The notes beneath the pieces were generated by a model. The model was not told the origin of the DNA. It searched no databases and saw nothing but the letters and a program-made list of their open reading frames with translations. The position numbers and the translations under genes were made by a program. A stretch of 63,271 nt of DNA, the filler included, from Globobulimina sp. (lineage: Eukaryota), in NCBI GenBank assembly GCA_003354225.1. It is 20 parts of 20 records of this genome, joined end to end, with 100 filler letters (N's around TTAATTAATTAA, not from the genome) between each part and the next. Parts side by side here need not be neighbours in the genome. Positions count along the whole stretch, not along the records: positions 3,173 to 6,244 come from PIVH01003810.1; 19 more parts are not named here. The stretch is one strand, 5' to 3'. Shown piece by piece: positions 3,173-63,271 of the stretch. Each line of letters starts with the position of its first letter. The first letter of the stretch is position 1.

Positions 3173-3319
3173 TGGATGAATGTAAAAATGTTTTGGATCT
3201 TATCAAAAAAACCAGGCGCAACGAGAAAATCCAACTGAAAAAATATATACAAGCAACAGCAACAGCAACCAATCAAACAAACAAATTAAAAACAAAAAAC
3301 AACAAACAAAACAAAAAAA

Positions 3320-6145
3320 CTATATACTTTTCAATCTTTGCACATTGGGACTTTTCTCCGCATCGACGTCCGAAATGCCCAAATATTCCTTAATATTCTC
3401 ATCCTGATCGATGAACCATTCGTGATATCGATAGGCGTCTTCATCGAACTCTTCCTCTTCCAGCGGCTGCGGATATTTATAAGCCAACAAATCGGAGATG
3501 ACGCCCTTTGTGATCTGCAACTGCTTCAACACCAAAAGAATGTGCGACTGGTTTTTATTGCGCACAAACAACAAATACAACATGCGATAAAACATTTTAT
3601 TGCGTTCCTCCTGGTCGCTCATCTCGAGGTACTCGTTTTTGACCTGCTCGAAAGACAACAAATACTGCATTTGGATGAATTTGTCCTCGGCACACACCGC
3701 CTCCAACGCATTCTGGTCCTTTACGTCCACCACAAACACGTTCTGAGTGAACACCTCTTCGCCCAAAATGCCCTTCAACTTCTTGAGCACATTGATGTTG
3801 TTACTGATGCACATCTCCACTACGATGGAGTCCTCCGCATAAAACGACTCGCAGTCCGCCTCATCCTCAAACTCGAACTCCGTCAGCAAAAAAATGATTT
3901 CCTTCTGCGAAATGTCCAAATGCTTCAACACCGTGTCGATGATGTCGCAGTTCCAGCACATGGAAAACAAGTGGAACACCAGCCGATAGCGCCACTTCTT
4001 GCTCTTGGTGTAGATGGTGAGCACGTCGCGGATGGAGAGGATCTCCTGAATCACCGACAAGTGGTTGTTGCGCATGGCGTACTCGATGGGCGTTATCGCG
4101 AACTCGTCCTCTTCGAAGAGCTCCTCTATGATCTCGTCGGTCGACATCAGCGAAATAATGAACTTGAACGCCGACAGTTTGCCCCGTTCGCAGATCGGAG
4201 ACAAGATGCAAATGTCGTGCGTCTCGTCGTGGTTCAGCAGGTCTTTCTTCTTCATGTTGTTGAACACCATCAGGCCGCATAAGCCGTACACATCGCCCAT
4301 CGTCGCGTACACTTTTAACTGCGACTCGCGGTTCAGCAGACTCGGCAGGATCTTGCTGACACTGTTCGCCATAAACGACTCTTCGCGCACGATTTCGTAC
4401 AAATTGTGGGCGTGCTTCTTGAAATTGATCATGGTCTTCAGACTGAACTGGATCTCGCCGGTGATGTTGTTGCGAGGGCCGCGGATCAAAACATTTAGCT
4501 TAATGTCGGCGTAGCGGCGCCCTTTCTTGACGTATTTGGGGAAGCCGTTCTTGCAACGAACGATACCAATCACTGCGCCGGCTTGGTACGAACGCACTTT
4601 GTTGACAAACAATTTCAGCGCAAACAGCATGCTGTTGATGTCCGTGAAGACCAACGAGCACCGATTCAAATCGATGATGCACGCCGAGGTCGGGTACCGT
4701 TGGTCGAAATAGTCGTTTTCCGCCTTGCTGCGAGCACGAGACAACAACTTGACTGGTCCGCGCGTGTAATATATGAAAATGTCCTGTTTCTGCTCTTCAA
4801 TGATGCCGATATTGGTGAAGTTGTTCACATTGAACATCTTTTTCACAGATTTATGAAAGGAATCGTCCACGATTTGCGCCAATAAGGTGACGCGACTTAA
4901 ATATTGATGATGGTCATAGAATTTGGCGCCATCGAAGGTCTCGTTACTGGCATCATAATTTAACTGCGAATACGTGTATTCCCCGGTGATGCCATTGGGT
5001 ATGTTGTCCTGTCGGGGCGTCTTTTCATTGATCATTACTAAGTCTCTGGAATCCACTGAAAACGACACGAGATTTTTCCAACCTTCTTCGTTTTCGGCCG
5101 CTTCCGCAGCTAAATTGCGCTCCAATTCATCCAATTGTAATTCAGATTGTTCTGTTACGAGTTTTAAGAGTTCATAATATAAATATTTCTGCGTTTTGCG
5201 AAATACCGTGGTTTGACTCCTTTTTTCGTCATCTTTGATCGGTTCGAGAAACTCAGTCTTGGTGTACCAGATCTATATTGTTAGAAAAACGTGTTTTGCA
5301 CACATATAAGTCCGAAAAAATCCGAAATAAATCACAAAAATATTGAAAAAATCTGAAAAAAATAAAAACGTTTTTATAGGGATATATATATTGATTGTAA
5401 ATACCTTGGAGGGCAAGATACAATTTTGGAGCCAAAACCAGTCTCTTTTGTCCTTGCCGCTAATGGTCTCTTTGCATGTTTTCGTAATACATTGATACAA
5501 TTCGGATAAGCGTACATTTGCATATTTGTCTGTTTCGAACTTCCAGCATAGATTTAATATGTCGTCTGAAAAAGTTAATTTTTTGCTGATTATATTGATC
5601 ATTAATTCGACACATATTTTCCTGAATATTTCCTTGCTTTGGGCACCGATTAAACCTAATTCATTCACTATATTTTGAATAATGCCGTTTTGTTTATTTA
5701 GCGCATGCGACACATCTTTTATTTTTTCACCAATCGAGGCCTCCATTTCATTGAATAATAGTAATTGCTCGGTATGGCTCATCATAGCTTCTTGACTCTC
5801 TTCCAAGGCGGTGTTGCCGTCATCGTTTTTGTGATTTAATTTCGCGCCTAAATTAATGCATAATTGGGTGATGGAATAGTTTCCAATATAGGCTGCAAAC
5901 TGCAATAAAGTCCATCCATTGTCATTGACATCATCCATTAATATGACTTTGTCTTTAATCAATTTCTTGACTGCGTCTGTATCGTTTTTAAGTTTGTTTT
6001 CGATATTATCCCAAAATTGTTTTGAATGGCGGTTTGAGGATGATTTGTCTTTCATTTTTTGTTCTTGTTGCAAGGCAAAGTATGCCTTATGTAAAGCTTC
6101 CAATTCTGTCTTTAATTCTGCGTTTTCCTGCTTCAATTCCTCCAT
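3320..6145 (-). CDS. Ankyrin-repeat / RelA-SpoT-like nucleotidyltransferase / ankyrin-repeat protein (~897 aa, 2 exons)
   Basis: GT-AG intron 5273-5404 joins the two ORFs in frame (CILPSK|IWYTK). N-terminal ankyrins GWTLLQFAA and GNTALE; central GPVKxxxRxxxKxxxDY..DLNRCSLVF..IVRCKNGF..YADIKLNV..GEIQF..AHNLYE; C-terminal ankyrin-like repeats (ITPIEYA, QNALEAVC). Confidence 0.8.
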
Positions 6146-6481: not shown

Positions 6482-7932
6482 TCAATAATCACACGGATTA
6501 CATTTTTTTTTGATAGGTCCTCTATTTATACCATACGCTCTTCCATCGACACTGATAAAACTCTCGGATCCACCAAAATTGCCCTGTAAAGACAATCTCT
6601 GTAATTCATGTCCTTGCTCTTTCTTCAACCTCTCAAATAATTGTGTATCATAAATAATGTGCCCAACTAACTCCTCAAAGCCCTTTTTCATATATTTGAT
6701 ATATTCACCCATTTTACATGATATATTATACGTTTTAATATTAAACATCTCTGCATATAATTTAACATTATCAATAATTCCCTCACCCGTTGATTGATTA
6801 TCGTACAGCAAATCCATTTTGTTACAGAATAATATCATATCTACATCGTCGCAACAATTCTCTTTGGCCTGTTTTACCCAAAAATGGATATTTTTCCATG
6901 ATTCTATATCTGTACATGTAATTAACACATATTTGCACCATTATTATATTTATAATGAGTGAAATAATTAACTATAACACCTGTAATGTCGCACATCAGC
7001 AACACTCCGTGTACGCCCCTGTAATATTGTTTTGTTATGTTTTTAAATATTTCCTGTCCGGAGGGGTCCATTAATAATATCTCTATGTTATAATCTCGAT
7101 ATTTTTTTATGGTCATAAAACATGAGCAATCAACACCAATGGTTGGCAATACGTTGCTATCAAAATTATTTATTTCCAATCTCCGACGCAAAGTAGTTTT
7201 ACCAACACCAGCATCTCCGAGTAATATTATTTTTATTTTCAAAGCTTCTGGATCTCTTTGGAATGGTTTTATTGTCGTTATTTTAACAGTTTCTTGCTGT
7301 TCAATTTCGGCATGTGCTGGTTTGACAAGTTTTTGTGGCTCAGGTTTTTTTATTTCCGCAGGTTGACATGGTGTGCTGTTTCGTTTGTCTTCACCTTTGA
7401 TTACTGGCGTTCTGAATGCATCAATAATGGTTGTAAATATGTTTTGTATGTCCAATGATTGTGACAAACAAACTGTTTGATAATGCATATTTTTGTGTTT
7501 TGCACATTGCTCAGCTTCTGAATGCTTTGTAATTGCGTGTTGCGATAAAACATCCTCTCTGTATTTTGTTGTTCCAATCAATAATAAGATTGGATACCTT
7601 TGTTTATTTTGTGTTATTTCTGTAATCCATTGTTTTGCTACTTCAAATGTTGATGATTCGTAGATATCAAAGCATATAACGATAGCATCCACATTTGACC
7701 ATAAATTATTCGATGTTATATCAGTCACTGATGAACCACAAATATCGCGAATGCTTAATTCATACAATTTATTGTTATGTTTAACAGAATGAACTGTTGT
7801 CATTGTTTGCATTTCAGCAGCATGTATATGCGAATGCAAATAATTTCTTCCTGTGTACTTATAAACAATTGTCGATTTGCCAGTGGATTGTGCACCAACA
7901 ATTGTTACATTGATAGATATATCACCTCCCAT
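6482..7932 (-). CDS. Tandem double Ras/Rab-like small GTPase (2 exons)
   Basis: Domain 1: GAQSTGKS, DICG, degenerate G4. Domain 2: GDAGVGKT, PTIGVD, DPSGQE, YYRG, NKMD, SCK. GT-AG intron 6910-6980 restores CDIT-DIESW. Confidence 0.85.
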
Positions 7933-7996
7933 TTGAGTGCCAAAGTAGTTACATCGAGTTTTTTTTATTTACTTTTGTCAGTTGTCACTGTAAACA

Positions 7997-12586: not shown

Positions 12587-12762
12587 NNNNNNNNNNNNNN
12601 NNNNNNNNNNNNNNNNNNNNNNNNNNNNNNTTAATTAATTAANNNNNNNNNNNNNNNNNNNNNNNNNNNNNNNNNNNNNNNNNNNNTAGGTATGGAATAT
12701 GGTATAGCTGCATTATCACTAAGCAATTAAGTAGTAATTGGTGAGTAATAAATTGCTTAACA

Positions 12763-12846
12763 CTAAGCAACTAAGCAACTAAGCAACTAAGCATATTTAA
12801 CAATATCTATTATATTAGCAAAAAAGCAAACTAAGCAACTAAGCAA
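12763..12846 (+). repeat. CTAAGCAA octamer tandem repeats
   Basis: About 4 tandem copies at 12763-12793 and 2 at 12831-12846. Confidence 0.85.
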
Positions 12847-13461
12847 TAACGAGAATGGTGCATCTAACATAAATTATGTGTTGAATATAATAATGATGTT
12901 GTTTGGTATGTATACGTATCAAAAGAGATCGATGATAGATATGGCTGTATGAGAGGTAGTTTTCCTGTTATTAGAGAATCTGGATCGATACAAAAATATA
13001 TGTATCCAACATCGTATTCATCGGTAATTGCTGCTGTTTCCAGACAAATAGATGGGATGTATGGGTACCTGCTAGTCAAGTCATTGGGCAATGTAATACA
13101 GAAATGCAATGGTTCGTATACCAGTTAAGTTAATCTGGTGCATTTTAACAGGCAATGGCGATAAAATCGTAACATTTGTTTTAGCTTAGCAACGGTTTGT
13201 TAAAGCAAAGCAAAGCAAAGCATATTAAGATGTTTTTTGATTTGCTTGGTTTTGTTTGTATACACAGATCAATTAATTCCGCGCCAATGGATAATAACAA
13301 TTGTAATGGGTCAATTGCAATGATAACAATAAAAATCATTGTCTTTTTCGATCCTATCAAAACATTTAATATAACAATAACAATTTAATTGTAATGAGTC
13401 AATCAATGCATGTGTGTCATATATATATATATATTTAATTAATTACAATTAAATATATTTG

Positions 13462-15756
13462 TTAAGAAAAGAAAAACTCGGAATCTTTGACTTGTTGGAG
13501 ATCAAACGTAGATTGGTTTGGTGGCGGTGCAAATTCAATGTCCGGATACAAAACGCAAAAAGATTTATATAACTCCGATAGCAATGAGACGGAATGCAAT
13601 TTAATAAATTGCTCCCTCAACACCACCGACATAGTGTCCACGTCGCACGAATGCGTCCAAAAACTATCATGAATCGATGCAAATGTTAAGCCATAACTCA
13701 TAAAACATTCCCTCGCTGTCAGCAGACAATGCGTCGAATCCAACGAATGCACAAAGTTGGGCGGGAATGCCGACGACTGCTTCAACACATTAATATCTTT
13801 GACATTCTTTATTTTGCACTTTTGCTGATTGAGATTTTGGATTTGAATGGTTTGCTTGCCCGCTTTTATCAAATTCACATTGCTTTTCTTATTGCAGTAA
13901 TGCTGCGTACACGGCAGGTTCAGGAAAGGCGTCATCCACGACACGCGATATCCATTCTTAGCAATCAGAGAGGCGCAGTTCTTGAGCCATAGCATGGATA
14001 AATAAGCGGGCGTATTGGTCAAACCAATGCCGTACATCGTGTACTTACTTAAATAGATCGACACTTCCAACACCAATTTGTGCGTTTCTTTGCTGTGAAT
14101 GTCGCCGTAATCGCCGCCACCATCACTTAGACGCAAGTCACCGCCGTCAATGGCATCCAAAATCCACCGCATTATCTGCGCCTTGGCGCCATACGACGTC
14201 ACGCCATACACCGACGTCATCACAGTTTGTTTCACAATTTTGCGCGTTATTTTGTTGGCAATCAAGTTGGACAACTTTTTCTTTTGCGCATTGCCCGAAT
14301 TCAAATCATTGACAACCATTTCATTCACACATTTCTGCACCGCGCCATACACATCGCCGCGGCCCAAATTATAAAACTTGTTATTCGCCACATTCACGTG
14401 TTTGGCCATGGTCTCATCCAAAAGCATGGCGGCGTAGTGCTGCAAACCATTGCAAGAGCCGTCCTGTCCGACGGGTAAATTCGACGCGAACTCAGAATAA
14501 ACAGCGTCGGGGCAGGAATTGTACGCATTGCTGATCTCGAATATGATGCTCAATGCTTGAAAGGGCGAATCTGCAGTCAACCACCATCTGTCCGCCAATG
14601 CGTCCCTGCCGCAAGAAAGGATTTCATTTTTACGCGCGATGGACCACTCAAACCGGTCCTCATTGGGAACTTTGTCGAACCCGAACTTGTTCGCTAAGTT
14701 TACATTCAACCAAAACCAGCCTCGAGTTCCCAGCTTCTTCTTCTTTGAAAACAACATCATTCCGCGAACAATGTCGGAACCGATATGATTGACATGCGGC
14801 GAAATGGGATAGATTCGACCGCGGAAATCAATGTTTAAAGGAAAATAGATTTCAGTTTCGGTTTCTAACTGTTTGGCGAGCTGCAACTTCAAATTCAAAT
14901 CGCATCGCAAAGAGTGCAGCTCGCGGTTCTTTTTCTCGATTGATTTGATTTTGTAGTCGTCGTCTTTGTCGCTATCAACTTCGTAGTCCACTTTATTGGG
15001 CAAACCCGCAATGTTTCCATTTTGAGTGTGGTATAAATACGTTATGACCTCCAATATTTTCGCATTGATTCGCCAAGACGTCGATTGTAAGATATTTATG
15101 CATTGCAACAGCTCTTTGGTGTTGTTGTGGGAGATTTGTTTGTATTGATGGTTGTAGTCAGTGTATCGCATTAAAGACTCGTTGTAGTAAAAGAAGGGGC
15201 CTTCGTTGATGTTTTTCCATGGCCGCGGCGGGATTATCATAGGCTGGGCGATGGGTGACAGTTTCTGCGGTGATTTGTAACTCGCACTGCCGACTAACAA
15301 CTGTTTGAATATTTTATTACATAAAATCACGCCAATTTGCTTGTTACTGCGCTGTATTATTTTATGAGTCAATGCAGGTTCGCCATTTGCGCCAATTACG
15401 CACGAATCGATGATGGAGGATAGGATTAGACCGCCAATCTCGTAGATGTTACTGATATCGAATGAGTCTCCGATTTTGATCCCTAAATGTTTGGCTAAAT
15501 GTAGTTTGTTTTTGTGATTGGTGGCATTATTTAAGAATTTCTGCGTCTGTGGAGAGGATAATTTATTTTCTAAAAATAAGTCTCGTTCGATTTCTTTGCC
15601 AATGGCATTGCATAAAATATTATATGGCGTTCCCTCGCTGTCTTCGTCTTCGTTTTTATTTATAAAATCTACCAACGTTTGAATGCCAATGGAAGCACTG
15701 TTGGCACTGTCGATGATTGCTAATATTTTCGAGGATAATCGATGTTTGCCAATGGC
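13462..15756 (-). CDS. POLRMT: T3/T7-type single-subunit RNA polymerase, most likely the nuclear-encoded mitochondrial RNAP (5'-truncated)
   Basis: PMIIPPRPW, DFRGRIYP, QDGSCNGLQHYAA (motif A), RKIVKQTVMTSVYG (motif B), PPNFVHSLD, IHDSFWTH (motif C), C-terminal FFS. Confidence 0.95.
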   Translation of the reverse strand, partial: AIGKHRLSSKILAIIDSANSASIGIQTLVDFINKNEDEDSEGTPYNILCNAIGKEIERDLFLENKLSSPQTQKFLNNATNHKNKLHLAKHLGIKIGDSFDISNIYEIGGLILSSIIDSCVIGANGEPALTHKIIQRSNKQIGVILCNKIFKQLLVGSASYKSPQKLSPIAQPMIIPPRPWKNINEGPFFYYNESLMRYTDYNHQYKQISHNNTKELLQCINILQSTSWRINAKILEVITYLYHTQNGNIAGLPNKVDYEVDSDKDDDYKIKSIEKKNRELHSLRCDLNLKLQLAKQLETETEIYFPLNIDFRGRIYPISPHVNHIGSDIVRGMMLFSKKKKLGTRGWFWLNVNLANKFGFDKVPNEDRFEWSIARKNEILSCGRDALADRWWLTADSPFQALSIIFEISNAYNSCPDAVYSEFASNLPVGQDGSCNGLQHYAAMLLDETMAKHVNVANNKFYNLGRGDVYGAVQKCVNEMVVNDLNSGNAQKKKLSNLIANKITRKIVKQTVMTSVYGVTSYGAKAQIMRWILDAIDGGDLRLSDGGGDYGDIHSKETHKLVLEVSIYLSKYTMYGIGLTNTPAYLSMLWLKNCASLIAKNGYRVSWMTPFLNLPCTQHYCNKKSNVNLIKAGKQTIQIQNLNQQKCKIKNVKDINVLKQSSAFPPNFVHSLDSTHCLLTARECFMSYGLTFASIHDSFWTHSCDVDTMSVVLREQFIKLHSVSLLSELYKSFCVLYPDIEFAPPPNQSTFDLQQVKDSEFFFS

Positions 15757-16158
15757 TNNNNNNNNNNNNNNNNNNNNNNNNNNNNNNNNNNNNNNNNNNN
15801 NTTAATTAATTAANNNNNNNNNNNNNNNNNNNNNNNNNNNNNNNNNNNNNNNNNNNNTTTCTGCCAATGATTGGGTGTTGAAATTTGTGTATCGAACAGC
15901 TGCAGCAACCACGTCTGTGGCTGGCTTAATGCCAATTCAATGCGATGGAGTTGAAAATGTCAATTTAAGTCATTGTATTGATGGACATTCTCAATATTCA
16001 AACAAAGTCCCCAACATTCTAAAATATTTAATCGATGATTGCCATTTGTATTTGTAAATTGAAAAATATTCGCCCTTGCTTTGGAAATATTTTTGCCGTG
16101 AACACATTATTTAATTATATTATACTAAAACTGAACTAGTATTAAAAGATCGAAAATA

Positions 16159-28398: not shown

Positions 28399-28734
28399 GA
28401 CATCATGATAAAATCCAAAATTTGCATGATAAAATCNNNNNNNNNNNNNNNNNNNNNNNNNNNNNNNNNNNNNNNNNNNNTTAATTAATTAANNNNNNNN
28501 NNNNNNNNNNNNNNNNNNNNNNNNNNNNNNNNNNNNATTTATTATAATAAGTATATATATAATGTCATTCAGTTTCAAAGTATGCCATCATACAAACTAT
28601 GCGGTGCAGAAAACCGCAAGCTTCGAAAACATTAATTAATAATTACGGGAAACTGTTGTTTGTTTTGTTTGCTAAAAAAAATATAAAATTAAATTAAATG
28701 TACCGAGTAAACATTTTCTAACACACAATTTAAA

Positions 28735-30384
28735 TTATTTCAACGTATTTTGCAACATATTCCATGCATCATCTTGTTTATTGTGAGCCATTGTATTCCC
28801 ATTCGAATTCCCTTTATCCTGACTCGTAGCATCCCCACCGGTTACAAAATTCACGAGGGCGTCCATATTATTTATATTCCCAGATGCATAACTAGGCGCT
28901 GCTACATTTTGGGTTTGCCCCCACATCGATTGCTCTTCCTGTTGTGGTACAAACTGACTTTGTTGCTGTCGTACTGACTGATCATGACTTTGCTGATGTT
29001 GATATGGTGCCTGTTGAGTTTGCGCCGCTTGTTGAGTTTGCATCGTTTGTTGCTGTGGCTGTCCATATTGATATTGTGAATGCTGTTGTTGTCGTTGAGG
29101 TTGTTGCTGCTGCATTCTTTGTGGCTGTTGCTTTGATTCCACATATTGCGAAGGCGATTGTTGCTGTTGTACCCTTTGTGTTTGCTGATATTGTACTGAT
29201 TGGGGCTGATACTGCGCATATTGTGACTGCTGATATTGCCCTTGACCATGACCTTGTGATTGTGATTGTGGCTGTTGATATGTTTGTTGTTGTGTTGATT
29301 GAGGCTGTGCCTGTTGTGGTTGTTGATAATGTTGCTGTTGATACGGTTGCTGTTGTACAGATTGCCGCTGCTGTGAATGCTGTGGATGCTGAACTTGCTG
29401 CGGTGATTGTTGCTGTTGTACTGCCTGTTGCTGTGGCTCAGGATACTGCGAATGTTGCGAATGTTGCACTTGTTGTGGCGATCGCTGCTGTTGTTGTTGC
29501 TGTGACTGTGTCTGATATGGATCAGTATAATATTGCTGCGACAATGCACCAAATGGATCATTATTTTTTGCTTCCTGTGGCATATTATTACGAGCCACCG
29601 GCCTCTCCCACGTTGACTCCTTCGTTGCATCATTTTGATAAAATACCTTTCCATCGGCAGTACGGAACGATGTCCAGCCGGCTGGCAACATTTGCTGTGC
29701 AGTCGACGTCTGCGCTGGAACTTGATATTGCTGCTGCTGTACATATTGCATTTGTGGCTGTGGCTGTGGCCGTTGCCGTTGTTGTCCATACTGCGCATAT
29801 GGTTTCTGTGAGTAGGGCGCACTGGGCTCAGGCTGAGGTTGTAGCCGTTTGTTATTATTAAGGTCGAGCTCCGCTAATGAGGCTGATAAAGCCAATGCGA
29901 GTTTGAGCTCTTGGTCTTCTTTCTCTTTCAAACGACGATCGTCCGCCGCTTTTGATTCACTTTTGTAATTATTAACTGTCTCTTTTTTAGGTTCGATGAG
30001 ATGGAGCCACGCTTTTGGGACAGATAAGAAATCCATAATTAAGTCAGTTTTGCATAACTGTTGACTCATTAACAAGGTACGGAGATATTGCTGTAATTTG
30101 GTACGGCGATCGGCCACCACTTTGCTGTCATTTTTGCCAAATAATAGTTTCTTTGGAAGCTGTGGAATGATCAACAGGTCGTCTTCTTGCAATCGTTTGA
30201 GTGTATCGTTGGACTGGACACGCTTTAATATGCTTGTATGCAATGCATGGAAGTCGCTGTATCGTTTGAAAATTATGTATGGTTCAAGGATGGAGCCTGA
30301 CACTTCCATTTCATACAAGGTATAGGCTTTCTTGGTTTGGGTGGTTGTGATGCCCAGGATTTTGACATTTAATAAGCTGTTCAT
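28735..30384 (-). CDS. PX + UIM + WW domain protein with long Gln-rich tail
   Basis: PX: YTLYEM..KRYSDFHALH..PQLPKK..RRTKLQQYL. UIM-like: EDQELKLALALS. WW: LPAGW..GKVFYQN..STWERP. Confidence 0.88.
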   Translation of the reverse strand: MNSLLNVKILGITTTQTKKAYTLYEMEVSGSILEPYIIFKRYSDFHALHTSILKRVQSNDTLKRLQEDDLLIIPQLPKKLLFGKNDSKVVADRRTKLQQYLRTLLMSQQLCKTDLIMDFLSVPKAWLHLIEPKKETVNNYKSESKAADDRRLKEKEDQELKLALALSASLAELDLNNNKRLQPQPEPSAPYSQKPYAQYGQQRQRPQPQPQMQYVQQQQYQVPAQTSTAQQMLPAGWTSFRTADGKVFYQNDATKESTWERPVARNNMPQEAKNNDPFGALSQQYYTDPYQTQSQQQQQQRSPQQVQHSQHSQYPEPQQQAVQQQQSPQQVQHPQHSQQRQSVQQQPYQQQHYQQPQQAQPQSTQQQTYQQPQSQSQGHGQGQYQQSQYAQYQPQSVQYQQTQRVQQQQSPSQYVESKQQPQRMQQQQPQRQQQHSQYQYGQPQQQTMQTQQAAQTQQAPYQHQQSHDQSVRQQQSQFVPQQEEQSMWGQTQNVAAPSYASGNINNMDALVNFVTGGDATSQDKGNSNGNTMAHNKQDDAWNMLQNTLK

Positions 30385-30490
30385 TTTTAATGTTGGTTAA
30401 GGACACATGCACGGTGCACGCACTGAGATTAAAATTAAGAAAAACTTTTGTTTAATTTAAATAATGGGAGTGTAAAAAGAAAATAATTTT

Positions 30491-31075
30491 TTATTGGCAT
30501 TTTGTGGACATCACTTTCTGTCTTTGTTTGATGGCAGTTTCTGTTGCGTGCTTGATAGGAATCGAATATCCCAATGGAAACAATACAAATTCAAACCATA
30601 CGAATAGCGGAGCGAGCACAACGCTTTGATAAAATGAGTCTAACAACGCTGGTTTTCGCCCTTCGAATACGCCATGGCCAATAAACTGCAGTATCCATGA
30701 CATTGCATGGATTAATAATATGGTAGAAAATGAGAAATTGGATGCAATGCAGGTGCCAGAATACCAAATGAATGCACCAAGCGGAAGCCAAGAAATTGCA
30801 GCGATTACATCAATAAAAAAATACGATATTGGATACTGTAAACAAAACCAAATGAATAATACATTGTTGACTGGAAAGCAATCTAATGAATATTTTGCGG
30901 GGAAATCCGTAAATATGTTTTGGTTAAAAAACGGAATAAAAGAAAGCAATGATATTGCTGTTATCAGCAATATTGGAACAAAAATAAAATGAATTATTTG
31001 GTTGATAAGATTGCTGTGATATGCGCCATAAAATGATAATTGTTGTACTAAATACTGTTTATTTTGTAACTTCAT
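30491..31075 (-). CDS. MPO1: Mpo1/DUF962-family ER membrane protein
   Basis: YGAYHSNLINQIIHFIFVP and QFIGHGVFEGRKPALLD signature motifs. Confidence 0.9.
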   Translation of the reverse strand: MKLQNKQYLVQQLSFYGAYHSNLINQIIHFIFVPILLITAISLLSFIPFFNQNIFTDFPAKYSLDCFPVNNVLFIWFCLQYPISYFFIDVIAAISWLPLGAFIWYSGTCIASNFSFSTILLIHAMSWILQFIGHGVFEGRKPALLDSFYQSVVLAPLFVWFEFVLFPLGYSIPIKHATETAIKQRQKVMSTKCQ

Positions 31076-31234
31076 TATAGTTTAATACGCTGTTGTAAGC
31101 TGCTTATAATAGCAATTATGAGTTAATTATATATGTCGTTCATAATTGGTATTTGACTCCTAATTGGTGTGTGATGTATGTCGGTGAATAAGACTCTCTG
31201 GCAAGATTGCTGTGATATGAGACCATCAATAGAA

Positions 31235-31582
31235 TATCAGCTCAGATATTTTGCTCATAAATAATTCTGAGCGTTCATTTTGAGTAAATTTGCTGAGCAG
31301 CGCAATATTTGAGAGAATCTGAGTGGATTATTAGTTTATAATTATTGGACTAAAACGTATTCATTGTATCACCACTTAATTGGATTATAATAACACTCAG
31401 AATTACTGCTCAGCTCAGATTTATATGCTCCAAATATCCATCCATTACATACCACGAATTGTGGGTGGAACGCTCAGGCATTTTTCTGAGCACTCAACCA
31501 TCAGACTTGCGCGTACGTTTCTGGCAATTTAGAACATTAATGAGTGGAATACAGCTTTTCTGAGCATTTTTTCTGAGCGATG
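31235..31582. repeat. Cluster of CTGAG(C)/(G)CTCAG motifs in both orientations
   Basis: About a dozen copies in ~350 bp of non-coding DNA, including TTTTCTGAGC three times near the contig end. Confidence 0.6.
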
Positions 31583-31704
31583 CATGCTTATTGGTGTAAA
31601 ATGTNNNNNNNNNNNNNNNNNNNNNNNNNNNNNNNNNNNNNNNNNNNNTTAATTAATTAANNNNNNNNNNNNNNNNNNNNNNNNNNNNNNNNNNNNNNNN
31701 NNNN

Positions 31705-60206: not shown

Positions 60207-61059
60207 AATGCGCCTGTTCGAAGGGCGGGTAGCCGGTGATCAAGATGAACAAAACCACGCCCATACTGAAGATGTCGCACGCCAAATCGTACGGTTTGTC
60301 CAACAGCAACTCGGGAGCCTGATAGCCGCGGGTGCCCACATACGTGGTCTTCATGATGGCGTCGGCGTCGCTCTCGAACACTTTGCTTAAGCCGAAATCC
60401 GTCAGTTTGATATTGAAGCGGGAGTCTAATAAGAGATTCTGAGGCTTGATGTCGCGGTGAGCCACGCCGGCATTGTGACAGGCCTCCAATCCTTGGTTGT
60501 TTAGGTGCGGTTTGGTCATTGGGGAGTTTGTTTATGCGCAGATTCGCAAGTTAGAGAGTGCAAGCATACCGAATATGGATTGCCGAAAATATGTACGGGC
60601 TAATATCGGTTCTAAGGCCGAGGTATAATACAAGATATCGAATATCTCGCCGCCGGGCGCGAATTCCAAGACTAATAACACGGTGTCGATCTTTTCGTTT
60701 TTTTTGGTGGGATAGCGAGCGTTTAAATTGTAGGCGTACAATTTCATTACGTTTGGATGCCGGATTTGTTTCAATGATTCGATTTCGGTGACAACCTGTT
60801 TCGACTGTTGTTGTGTTGTATGTTTATGTGAGTTTGTGGTGTTCGCAACATATAAAAGTAACAAATACAAAACTTGTTCTTTTGCCCAAGATTCGTCGGC
60901 TTTGGCCATGAATTTCAATGCTACACATTTTCCGGTTTTTTTGTCAAATCCTTTTTTTACCCATGAATAACCGCCTTTGCCTAATGTTTCGCCAATATAC
61001 CATCTGCCGATGGTTCGCATTTTCTTTTGTTTTGGTGCTCTCTGTTTTGTTGTCGCCAT
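60207..61059 (-). CDS. Ser/Thr protein kinase (CAMK-like), 3'-truncated, 2 introns
   Basis: LGKGGYSWV, VALK, HRDIKPQN, DFG, GTRGYQAPE, DIFSMGV. GT-AG introns 60805-60873 and 60492-60569. Confidence 0.95.
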
Positions 61060-61390
61060 TTTGAAATTCAAATCTGTAATTTGTATGTAGTGTGTTTCTC
61101 ACTTTACAATGCTCTTCTTAGTTGCTGAGGGGTTTTGGGCTGAATTGCAGTTATTTTATCTAAAAAACAGACTGTGATCAAGGCTGCAGTAACTCCGGAA
61201 TTTGATGATTATAGAATTGAGCTTAAAAAGAAACTGTAACAAATATACACACTGATTACAGCAATAGGTATATGGTCGTATTAAACTGGAATTAAACGAA
61301 TTAATACGTTGTGTATGAATACAATCAATATACATTGTTAAAATATCAAATGGTTTTAACGATACAGCATTACAGCTTTATTGCCAGAGT

Positions 61391-61978
61391 TTAATCTTCA
61401 TTCATATTGTTTTTAAATTTGTTTTTTGAATTTAAGAGTTGAACCAATTCGGACTCAATTACAAAACTATCAATTAATTTGATGATATCAATTGGAACAT
61501 TATGTTCCTTTCCTGCACTATTCAATGCAGAACTTGTTTCATTTTGTTGTTTAACCATTAATTCCAATACGTTCCAACCAGTCTCACGATACAATGAAAT
61601 GATAAACTTCCTAAGCCAATGAACAAAGTTTGAATAAGTTGTAGAAACGATTTGTATTAAATAATCTTCCACTGTATTAATAATAGTTTGCCTTTCAAAC
61701 GCAATGATCTCTACAATTTCAACAAAATAAAGCATTAAAACCTCCATTCCAAATGCTATAAATAATGATGTCTTTTCCAATGAAAGTTGATACAATTCAA
61801 ACAGTGAAAGATCTGACATATACATTACCATTCCAACAGAAAAAGAGAATACAACGAATGGAATGATTGAATAAACAAACAAAAATATTGCAGTGTAAAT
61901 TCTTTTCATTATACACTGCGAGCATTGGGATAATTTATTATAGCAACAAATTGCAGCATTAAGAGCAAATACAACCAT
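61391..61978 (-). CDS. Membrane protein of unknown function (start uncertain)
   Basis: Two to three hydrophobic segments; C-terminal VPIDIIKLIDSF motif. Confidence 0.55.
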   Translation of the reverse strand: MVVFALNAAICCYNKLSQCSQCIMKRIYTAIFLFVYSIIPFVVFSFSVGMVMYMSDLSLFELYQLSLEKTSLFIAFGMEVLMLYFVEIVEIIAFERQTIINTVEDYLIQIVSTTYSNFVHWLRKFIISLYRETGWNVLELMVKQQNETSSALNSAGKEHNVPIDIIKLIDSFVIESELVQLLNSKNKFKNNMNED

Positions 61979-62311
61979 TTTAACAATACTTCTGCGATGG
62001 TTCCATTTAAACCGTTCAATCGGAATTATCTTTTTTAATAATTTATGGTGTACATAAAAATAAAGTTAAGAGAAAAGAAAAAGTTGAAATGAAAACATAC
62101 ATTAATGAGGTATATTGTTTGTTTAGTCATTCTTGTTGAGAAATAGTGAAATGTTTTTGTATTTTAAAATATGTGAATTGCCGAAAATTAACGCTGGAAT
62201 TATGACAGGAATACATAACTGATGGCAGCTACAAAGGGAAAGCGTCTCTGAAAGATTTTTTACTAAGTTTTAGGATGTCAGGTAGAGATCTCTTATAATA
62301 AATGATTAACA

Positions 62312-63271
62312 TCAATCAATACGTTGTTTTTTTGTTGGTGGTTGTTTTAAAGTTTTATCATAATTATCAAGATGTCTTCTTTTATTATTATGTTTCCAAT
62401 TCCGTCCATGTTTAGATGCGTACATATATTGATATGATTGCTTTAATTCATCACTTTTGAAATCAATATATTTCCTAAAATGTAAATTATTTGTTTCACT
62501 TTTTGCATTCATAATTTTATCATATTCATCTTGCGTAATATCCATTATTCTTATAATTGCATTTAAATTTTGATTTCTTTTATAAATGCTTATTCTCTCC
62601 GCTTTGCCAATAAATTCCGATAAAAAATCAAAAATTACCGATTCAATATCACCACCAATTACAATGTCACTTTCTTTTGATTCGCATTCATTCTCTTTCG
62701 ATTTCATGCCACAATAAAACATTTTATACCATTCGTCATTAACGGCGTTGTAATCCACGCCGCAAAAAACACCCTCTTCATCACACTCATTCTCCTCCTT
62801 ATTATCATGCCCATTATTTGCAAACTTGAGGTTAAAATTAAATTTATCATCGATATAATATTTATTTCCAATATAAAAATGTTTACAATAATTATAACTT
62901 AAATTCAATCGATTAACAAAATGCGACAAACTCCGCATGGAATTATCATGAAATTCATCTTTTACATGAAACAAATCCTTAACACTCTCATTTTCACCAT
63001 TTAATCCATATAAATATTGTGCCAATTTTGCATATAAATATCCAGTACAAAATGCATCGTAACCCGCCTCATGAAATGCGCCATGACTCGATTCCAAATA
63101 ATTTCTTTCTTTTTCAATATTTCTTTCATTTTCATTCATAAAAATACAAACATCAATCAATAATTTCTTTTCTTTTTCCTTTTCATTTTCCTTTTCATTC
63201 ATAAAATATTTAAAACATTGTGACAAAGAAAAATTATCTTCGATTGCAATGTTTTGCCCTTTAAATAGATG
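62312..63271 (-). CDS. PARN/CAF1-family DEDDh deadenylase, C-terminal part (5'-truncated)
   Basis: FHEAGYDAFCTG ExoIII motif followed by FVNRLNL; basic NLS-like tail. Confidence 0.75.
   Translation of the reverse strand, partial: HLFKGQNIAIEDNFSLSQCFKYFMNEKENEKEKEKKLLIDVCIFMNENERNIEKERNYLESSHGAFHEAGYDAFCTGYLYAKLAQYLYGLNGENESVKDLFHVKDEFHDNSMRSLSHFVNRLNLSYNYCKHFYIGNKYYIDDKFNFNLKFANNGHDNKEENECDEEGVFCGVDYNAVNDEWYKMFYCGMKSKENECESKESDIVIGGDIESVIFDFLSEFIGKAERISIYKRNQNLNAIIRIMDITQDEYDKIMNAKSETNNLHFRKYIDFKSDELKQSYQYMYASKHGRNWKHNNKRRHLDNYDKTLKQPPTKKQRID

Follow-up and report, generated by a model that had tools for sequence, protein, structure and literature searches.

Stringent signalling in bacteria and plastids is built around RelA/SpoT homologue (RSH) synthetases, which are also at the core of several toxin and defence systems. 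Bacterial small alarmone synthetases (SAS) are single-domain proteins of about 200 amino acids (aa) that are recognised by the Pfam model PF04607; CapRel pyrophosphorylates tRNA and carries a fused sensor/antitoxin domain; Tas1 is a (p)ppApp-synthesising type VI effector. Here we describe a gene from a 63,271-nt stretch of DNA from Globobulimina sp. (assembly GCA_003354225.1; 'the window' below means this whole stretch), which encodes an 897-aa protein with, in this order, N-terminal ankyrin repeats, a helical linker, a central domain of about 210 aa and degenerate ankyrin-like repeats. Structure prediction assigns the RSH synthetase fold to this central domain with high confidence, RSH enzymes being its best and specific structural matches, and the model supports its placement in a sequence-cryptic, foraminifer-expanded branch of that fold with a new architecture.

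In the available portions of the papers concerned, the eukaryotic synthetases described outside plastids are only a few uncharacterised 'divRel' proteins and the effector domains of fungal NOD-like receptors (NLRs) (PMC3153485, PMC4986451). The synthetase-only divRel proteins occur in Aspergillus, Gibberella, Dictyostelium and two diatoms (Atkinson et al. 2011, PMC3153485). The foraminiferal protein resembles them, as they are portrayed in that part of the survey, in being an uncharacterised, synthetase-only eukaryotic RSH candidate outside the plastid type. It differs in that divRel was found with RSH hidden Markov models (HMMs) and consists of the synthetase domain alone, whereas the foraminiferal family escapes PF04607. 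The accessible text of the survey does not contain the word 'ankyrin' and lists no foraminifera.

In fungi, PF04607 domains are N-terminal effectors of NLRs, in arrangements such as RelA_SpoT-NACHT-WD40 or in unannotated ones (Dyrka et al. 2014, PMC4986451, and bioRxiv 10.1101/2022.03.16.484565, both in the portions available). As described there, these proteins likewise unite an RSH-type domain with superstructure-forming repeats in one eukaryotic chain, and their family is expanded and variable and has been proposed to act in immunity; they differ in possessing a central NACHT/NB-ARC and an N-terminal domain that PF04607 detects. Unlike in the fungal NLRs, the domain of the Globobulimina protein is central and has ankyrin repeats on both sides, and Pfam found no nucleotide-binding oligomerization domain (NOD; NACHT or NB-ARC) in the 897-aa protein or in 13 family members scanned. 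The initial annotation of this locus, made from the sequence, knew of no characterised example of the architecture. No published description of an ankyrin-RSH-repeats protein was found in the accessible full-text literature, which lacks most subscription journals and supplements, and the same literature yielded no paper on foraminifera with ppGpp or on RelA/SpoT in Reticulomyxa. The fungal RelA_SpoT-NACHT-WD40 proteins, in the available part of PMC4986451, offer a partial eukaryotic parallel with a different architecture.

Predicted fold and conserved core of the central domain

The domain and the elements of its putative active site are encoded on the minus strand, in the second of two exons:

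4364-4990 (-), RSH-synthetase-like domain, exon-2 aa 95-303, full-length aa 342-550
4724-4750 (-), K422-x3-R426-x3-K430, the basic helix after the first core strand, putative ATP-phosphate site
4670-4672 (-), codon GAT of D448 (exon-2 D201), putative Mg2+-binding catalytic Asp, invariant in 82/82 homologues
4454-4456 (-), codon GAG of E520 (exon-2 E273) in E-I-Q, putative catalytic Glu, invariant in 82/82 homologues

An AlphaFold2 (AF2) model of the domain, built with an 82-sequence alignment, has a predicted local distance difference test score (pLDDT) of 94.5 and a predicted template modelling score (pTM) of 0.85, the five models ranging from 92.4 to 94.5 in pLDDT; a single-sequence run gave a pLDDT of 32. 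Searched against the PDB with Foldseek, the model returned 50 matches at E≤0.001, the best at E 6.3e-6 with probability 1.00, and all 28 of those listed are RSH synthetases (SAS1/RelQ, SAS2/RelP, exported Streptomyces SAS, Rel, RelA, RelSeq, CapRel and Tas1). After re-alignment with VIA the top 25 positions are again all RSH, from Z 13.2 (root-mean-square deviation (rmsd) 2.8 over 148 residues) down to 9.0, and Pol lambda, Pol mu and TdT start at Z 8.9. In a scan of 48,161 chains independent of Foldseek, every chain at Z≥8 (11/11) is an RSH enzyme; rank 12 is TdT at Z 7.8, followed by RsfS/iojap, cGLR, MenT and TUTases at 5.4-7.3. In the ESM Atlas the neighbours are for the most part unnamed eukaryotic clusters (score 0.95); the one Pfam family represented there is PF04607, with a score of 0.93 and a share of 6/30 matches, or 14/30 when the comparison is restricted to named clusters. 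The RelA/SpoT synthetase fold that had been proposed from motif order is supported by the AF2 model and by its comparison through Foldseek, VIA and the 48,161-chain scan, and the ESM Atlas agrees.

The best structural matches are small alarmone synthetases: RelQ/SAS1 (5DED, 5DEC), RelP/SAS2 (6EWZ, 6FGK) and the exported Streptomyces SAS (8VX3). They share the order of core strands and helices with the model and align at Z 11.8-13.2, with rmsd 2.8-3.7 over 148-166 residues, at an identity of only 11-14%. A stand-alone SAS has one domain and about 200-250 aa; the foraminiferal protein is a multidomain ankyrin protein of 897 aa with altered motifs and without a PF04607 match. CapRel (7ZTB, 9ERV) and Tas1 (6OX6) follow at Z 10.7-11.6, Tas1 showing more sequence identity (21% over 150 residues) than any other structural match. 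CapRel is also similar in carrying its catalytic domain in one chain with a non-catalytic, possibly regulatory domain; both differ in being bacterial, a phage-defence protein and an interbacterial toxin without ankyrin repeats, and PADLOC models miss the foraminiferal protein. The long RSHs (RelA, SpoT and Rel; plant RSH1-4) have the synthetase fold in common with it (Z 8.1-11.6) and differ in their HD, TGS and ACT domains, which are missing here, and in the lack of any profile similarity.

Six motifs occur in exon 2 at 4394-4750, within the interval of about 4385-4900 and in the order for which the initial annotation had described them. In exon-2 numbering they are K175-x3-R179-x3-K183, D201-x2-R204, R239-x-K241-N242, Y254-x-D256-x-K258-x-N260, E273-I-Q275 and H289-x2-Y292-E. 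Their conservation was read from an alignment of 82 homologues with 28-64% identity to the query, in full-length numbering: D448, N489, D503, K505 and E520 are invariant (82/82); K422, K430, R451 and K488 are kept in 81/82; and R426 (79/82), R486, Y501, N507, Q522, H536, Y539 and R543 are kept in 78-80/82. Beyond the nine best-kept residues, eleven polar or aromatic positions reach 78-80/82. The Ile of E-I-Q lies outside this tabulation, the family consensus being EVQ, and the final Glu of H-x2-Y-E has no majority residue in the consensus. Because 16 of the motif residues are kept in 78-82 of 82 homologues at only 28-64% identity, the motifs form, at the level of sequence, the core that the family conserves and are more than chance occurrences.

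The motifs also follow the order of the predicted strands and helices. In model numbering (to which 336 is added for full-length numbering), the elements are strand 74-83, helix 88-98, strand 114-120, helix 123-138, and strands 145-153, 168-174 and 180-189, with a long helix from 190. K-R-K lies on the helix after the first strand; the Asp, D448, stands two residues before the second; R-x-K-N ends the third; Y-x-D-x-K-x-N is in the fourth and E-x-Q in the fifth; and H-x2-Y is on the following helix. RelA and SpoT present GR.K...S...K, D..A.R, [EF/RV][D/K]DY, NGYQS.H, VE.QIRT and AAHW.YK in the same order, so that the basic helix, the Asp, RxK[D/N], the Tyr, E-x-Q and H-x2-Y all have candidate counterparts; R-x-K-N is closer to R-V-K-D of SpoT than to E-F-D-D of RelA. 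By this order, K422-x3-R426-x3-K430 would take the place of GRPKxxxSxxxK in RelA. For the Glu the structural alignments permit a closer estimate, although VIA gives ranges and not residue pairs: the range ends pair model residue 199 with RelA 350, 205 with SAS1 160 and 199 with RelSeq 338. If the last 15-21 residues are gap-free, E520 (model E184) would fall on RelA 335, the Glu of EIQIRT; the RelA numbering is that of P0208, which starts at RelA residue 200 and whose E136 is invariant in the RelA/SpoT alignment (A5). The same end-point arithmetic places E520 on SAS1 residue 139 and RelSeq residue 323, which we take to be the catalytic Glu of those enzymes.

Several results weigh against this assignment, and most of them come from sequence searches. 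With RelA and SpoT of E. coli, PF04607 gives E about 3e-43, yet at E≤10 it matches neither the 897-aa protein nor any of 25 family members (0/25). Exon 2 has no Pfam match above noise and none in NCBIfam or PHROGs, and the central domain as such finds nothing in NCBIfam, PADLOC or PHROGs. A family profile run against all PDB sequences returned only noise (E 0.26), and among 5.8 billion proteins a profile search with a cut-off of E≤10 gave 68 matches, all of them family members and none with PF04607. Compared with a RelA/SpoT profile by hhalign, family profiles of 25 and 82 sequences reached a probability of 0.2% in every mode (local, low-mact and global included), a weak test in view of the low diversity of the RelA/SpoT profile, whose 20 sequences (E. 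coli relA and spoT plus 18 of 80 loci) are mostly gammaproteobacterial and have an effective number (Neff) of 2.9. The motifs themselves depart from the canonical ones, with D-x2-R in place of D-x2-[A/G]-x-R and Y-x-D-x-K in place of the Y-x-S-x-H of RelA and SpoT. D448 is equated with the catalytic Asp of RSH enzymes tentatively, by motif order and predicted strand topology. On the structural side, the Foldseek TM-scores reach no more than moderate values (0.33-0.49, normalised by query length), RSH chains (Z 9-13) are separated from generic Pol-beta-type nucleotidyltransferases (NTases; Z about 8-9) by a mere 4 units or so, and all of the fold evidence starts from one predicted model. Thus, of the RelA/SpoT identity first proposed, the predicted fold stands, while PF04607 and hhalign give the identity no support. 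Since no sequence-level similarity to RSH was found, the order of the motifs is consistent with the fold but is not itself statistical evidence for it; and since the motifs depart from those of canonical RSH enzymes, the acceptor, and even the chemistry, may differ.

A family in the Foraminifera

The domain belongs to a large, uncharacterised family. Exon-2 residues 90-340 retrieve 77 proteins at 44-77% identity; Pfam assigns only ankyrin families to 55 of these, no family to 22 and PF04607 to none. An exhaustive HMMER scan of 1.84 billion representatives, clustered at 50% identity, counted 624 clusters at E≤1e-3, falling to 314 at ≤1e-10 and 81 at ≤1e-30; their lengths span 83-1915 aa. The long members (600-1900 aa) carry ankyrin repeats; the short ones come mostly from contigs of 0.5-3 kb and could be fragments. 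When 13 diverse members were scanned with Pfam, ankyrin repeats were present in all 11 long ones, and PF04607, HD, TGS, ACT and NACHT/NB-ARC in none of the 13 (E≤0.01/0.001). In the members examined, the recurring module is an N-terminal ankyrin region, the linker and the domain, the best Ank stretch being N-terminal in 4/13 members. The part after the domain varies, consisting of ankyrin-like arrays of differing length or of RCC1 repeats, as in P0139 (ankyrin, RSH-like domain and RCC1 repeats C-terminal to it). One further member, P0103, begins with a coronin-like DUF1899/WD40 region followed by ankyrin repeats and the RSH-like domain, an arrangement that could be a gene-model fusion.

Species labels were present on 21 of the 30 members looked up, and all are foraminiferal: 13 from Nonionella stella, seven from Bolivina argentea and one from Elphidium margaritaceum. 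The other nine are unlabelled environmental or assembly records, and two more members are labelled Ammonia sp. The family, present in transcriptomes of at least four foraminiferal genera, thus appears to be restricted to Foraminifera among the labelled members. Paralogues of a single species range from 29% to 59% identity to the query, and from this span it follows that the expansion is old and large.

Proposed activity and competing explanations

We consider it probable that the domain is a highly divergent but catalytically active pyrophosphokinase of the RSH type, with repeat arrays on either side. A working phosphoryl-transfer site is suggested by the near-total conservation, across deep paralogues, of a pair of carboxylates, one Gln and six or seven basic residues. 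In the mechanism that we envisage, the invariant residues would form an RSH-like active site in which K422, R426, K430, R451, R486 and K488 hold the phosphates of ATP, D448, E520 and Q522 hold Mg2+ and catalyse, and Y501 stacks against the base of the acceptor. The domain would then move the beta,gamma-pyrophosphate of ATP onto the 3'-OH of an acceptor. As a first guess the acceptor may be a free purine nucleotide, in which case the product would be a signal of the (p)ppGpp or (p)ppApp type; the main alternative is an RNA 3' end. More speculatively, the variable C-terminal arrays (ankyrin-like, or RCC1 in a paralogue) might bind a partner or ligand and so control the enzyme; the variability of the part after the domain would fit a role for these arrays in partner or ligand recognition. 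The fuller picture, that of a large foraminiferal family of cytosolic, sequence-cryptic RSH-type pyrophosphokinases whose repeats sense a partner or ligand and trigger either a (p)ppGpp/(p)ppApp-like messenger or RNA pyrophosphorylation, is one that we advance tentatively and with considerable doubt.

The explanation that fares best beside the alarmone reading keeps the fold and the chemistry and changes the acceptor: the domain would modify an RNA 3' end, for example the CCA of tRNA, as CapRel and FaRel2 do, and the protein would be a repeat-restrained, translation-blocking effector with an immune-like or cell-death role. We regard this as unlikely but as deserving to be kept in view. The longest structural alignments are those with CapRel (7ztb and 9erv; 165-170 residues, Z 11.2-11.6, model residues 6-214), the domain is rich in conserved basic residues, and a large, divergent, lineage-specific expansion with variable repeats is a pattern common in conflict systems. 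The CapRel scores nevertheless lie about 1.6-2 Z units below the best SAS matches, with no clear separation between the two, and FaRel2 itself reaches only Z 6.2 in the 48,161-chain scan; moreover, Pfam found no antitoxin-like partner or pseudo-zinc-finger domain, and the CapRel-type models of PADLOC gave no match.

The altered motifs admit another reading, in which the domain is an RSH-derived pseudo-enzyme or a nucleotide-binding sensor or scaffold without turnover. Loss of activity has precedents among SpoT-like synthetase domains; here D-x2-G-x-R lacks its Gly, S-x-H has become D-x-K, and the sequence is beyond the reach of every RSH model tried. What makes this improbable in our judgement is that the 82 homologues, down to 28% identity, show little or no variation in the basic cluster or in the carboxylates presumed to bind metal and catalyse, as expected of a working site, though a pure binding site could be conserved equally well.

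Still less probable is membership of the wider Pol-beta superfamily with some other chemistry, as in MenT, cGAS/CD-NTases or TENTs, such that the likeness to RSH reflects no more than a shared core. The absence of any RSH sequence signal would suit such an origin, and chains of Pol X, TdT, cGLR, CdnE, MenT1 and TUTases do appear, at Z 5.5-8.9. Against it, every chain at Z≥8 in the 48,161-chain scan is an RSH enzyme, with about 150-170 residues covered as compared with about 100-115 for other NTases, and PF04607 is the one named family among the ESM neighbours. Classical NTases bear the signature hG[GS] and DxD, which is not among the conserved columns of the 82-homologue alignment. Finally, that the fold assignment is a prediction artefact and the domain something else altogether, as might be argued from a single AF2 model, a failed single-sequence run and the want of support from any sequence method, is scarcely credible beside five models of uniformly high pLDDT (92.4-94.5), a strand and helix order that matches the order of the conserved motifs, and a language-model search that agrees.

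Should the domain prove active as the pyrophosphokinase proposed above, it would make alarmone-type or RNA-pyrophosphorylating signalling experimentally accessible in the cytosol of a protist, and surveys based on PF04607 would be under-counting eukaryotic RSH enzymes. Animals have the ppGpp hydrolase Mesh1 (available part of PMC7666150), and no synthetase was found in them in the accessible portion of the survey by Atkinson et al. (PMC3153485); the escape of eukaryotic alarmone synthetases from HMM surveys, if true, would bear on the unexplained source of animal ppGpp. The fuller picture sketched above would amount to stress or immune signalling in a eukaryote, alarmone-based or toxSAS-like, that dispenses with a NOD module. 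These wider implications are conjecture.

Gene structure, repeats and contig setting

The gene lies on the minus strand and consists of two exons, which together give a spliced coding sequence of 2694 nt with a single terminal stop. Its remaining parts, from the N-terminus to the 3' flank, are these:

5405-6145 (-), exon 1, 247 aa (P0002), with ATG at 6145 and an in-frame stop upstream
6041-6145 (-), putative coiled coil, a heptad-like charged segment at aa 1-35, read from sequence alone
5759-5989 (-), N-terminal ankyrin repeats, aa about 53-129, from Pfam and PDB matches
5405-5758 (-), exon-1 aa 130-247, and 4991-5272 (-), exon-2 aa 1-94, the conserved, putatively helical linker, from the family consensus
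5273-5404 (-), spliceosomal-type intron, GT..AG, 132 nt, phase 0, AT-rich
3320-5272 (-), exon 2, 650 aa (P0001) in 3323-5272, stop TAG at 3322-3320
3875-4222 (-), degenerate ankyrin-like repeats, full-length aa about 598-713, from phmmer and hhalign
3323-3874 (-), C-terminal part, repeat-like and with an acidic tail, containing internal repetition in homologues
3275-3319 (-), low-complexity 3' flank directly after the stop, T-rich as transcribed (A/C-rich on the plus strand), 21-nt period, 2.1 copies

The start is consistent with the family, in that the N-termini of homologues begin within about 20 aa of the ATG at 6145. Retention of the intron, which contains an imperfect 10-nt tandem repeat at 5314-5361, would bring an in-frame TAG at its end. 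The junction, '...CILPSK|IWYTK...', aligns by BLASTP without gaps to the conserved 'PSxIW' block in all ten homologues compared; these all derive from foraminiferal transcriptomes, eight carrying species labels (Bolivina, Nonionella) and the other two labelled Ammonia sp. and MMETSP1385. It is from this comparison with homologues, and from this only, that the predicted intron at 5273-5404 draws its support. The open reading frames (ORFs), the single stop and the ten junction alignments agree with the one spliced gene of about 897 aa that the initial annotation had outlined.

The remainder of that outline was upheld for the most part. The N-terminal ankyrins are confirmed by Pfam matches above cut-off in exon 1 (Ank_4 E 1.3e-9 and Ank_2 E 6.6e-7 at aa 53-117, and Ank E 7.8e-5) and by a PDB match of ankyrin-1/2 to aa 68-129 (E 1.6e-19). 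The predicted absence of HD hydrolase, TGS and ACT domains also holds, there being no Pfam match to any of the three in either exon at E≤10. The N-terminus, as read from the sequence, is acidic and heptad-like and does not resemble a transit peptide. For the C-terminal repeats the outcome is mixed: designed ankyrins match exon-2 aa 386-466 at a marginal E 0.0027 (phmmer), and hhalign pairs one segment of the family's C-terminal profile (aa 598-653) with the profile of its N-terminal ankyrins (probability 79.8%), but two further segments reach ≤3%, and no Pfam Ank was found in the region. An ankyrin-like nature of these repeats is plausible, though weakly supported. In homologues the region is internally repetitive, query aa about 596-868 re-aligning to later segments in 7/10 of them (secondary BLASTP alignments). 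Between the N-terminal ankyrins and the domain, the linker is marked by the consensus blocks 'FSDD.LNLCW', 'DWFW..C..PS.IW', 'YLYYELLK' and 'RQD.IPNG'.

The base composition of the gene is uneven. Within 3323-6145 the GC content at third codon positions (GC3) rises from 0.40 at the N-terminus to 0.92 at aa 651-700 and falls to 0.50 at the C-terminus, the change being smooth within exon 2. Bacterial contamination or recent transfer was considered as the source of the GC-rich centre and rejected: the rise and fall take place smoothly inside a single exon, comparable humps occur on at least three other contigs, the intron is of the GT-AG type, and the ankyrin repeats are in frame. Those other humps, of 45-54% GC, lie on the contigs at 12687-15757, 28537-31604 and 60207-63271, and the gradient may be a property of the genome, for example biased gene conversion among paralogues. 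Opposite the GC3-rich part, an antisense frame of 330 aa without stops runs from 3290 to 4282 (+); it is probably a by-product of the GC3-rich codon bias and no gene.

The window is a pseudo-molecule of 20 contigs of 3065-3072 bp, placed in order of size and divided by 19 spacers (N-run / TTAATTAATTAA / N-run) at a spacing of about 3.17 kb (3117, 6289, 9460 ... 60151). The adjacency of contigs within it is without biological meaning, and since the window is a concatenation, neighbouring 'genes' are not physically linked to the ankyrin/RSH-like gene. That gene fills the contig at 3173-6244 (3072 bp; PIVH01003810.1), which is its only real genomic context. On this contig no tRNA or Rfam family was found, and the only repeats are two short, low-complexity ones (one intronic, one in the 3' flank), neither of them notable. 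No paralogue of the gene was found elsewhere in the 63,271-nt window. P0064, considered as a possible copy of the same gene, was rejected, being a paralogue with 36% identity. On the next contig, at 6482-7968 (-), the minus strand has a pair of ORFs (6922-7968 and 6482-6940), adjacent or overlapping, with the P-loop motifs GDAGVGKT and GAQSTGKS of small Ras/Rab-like GTPases; they may represent one tandem-GTPase protein broken by an intron or a frame change.

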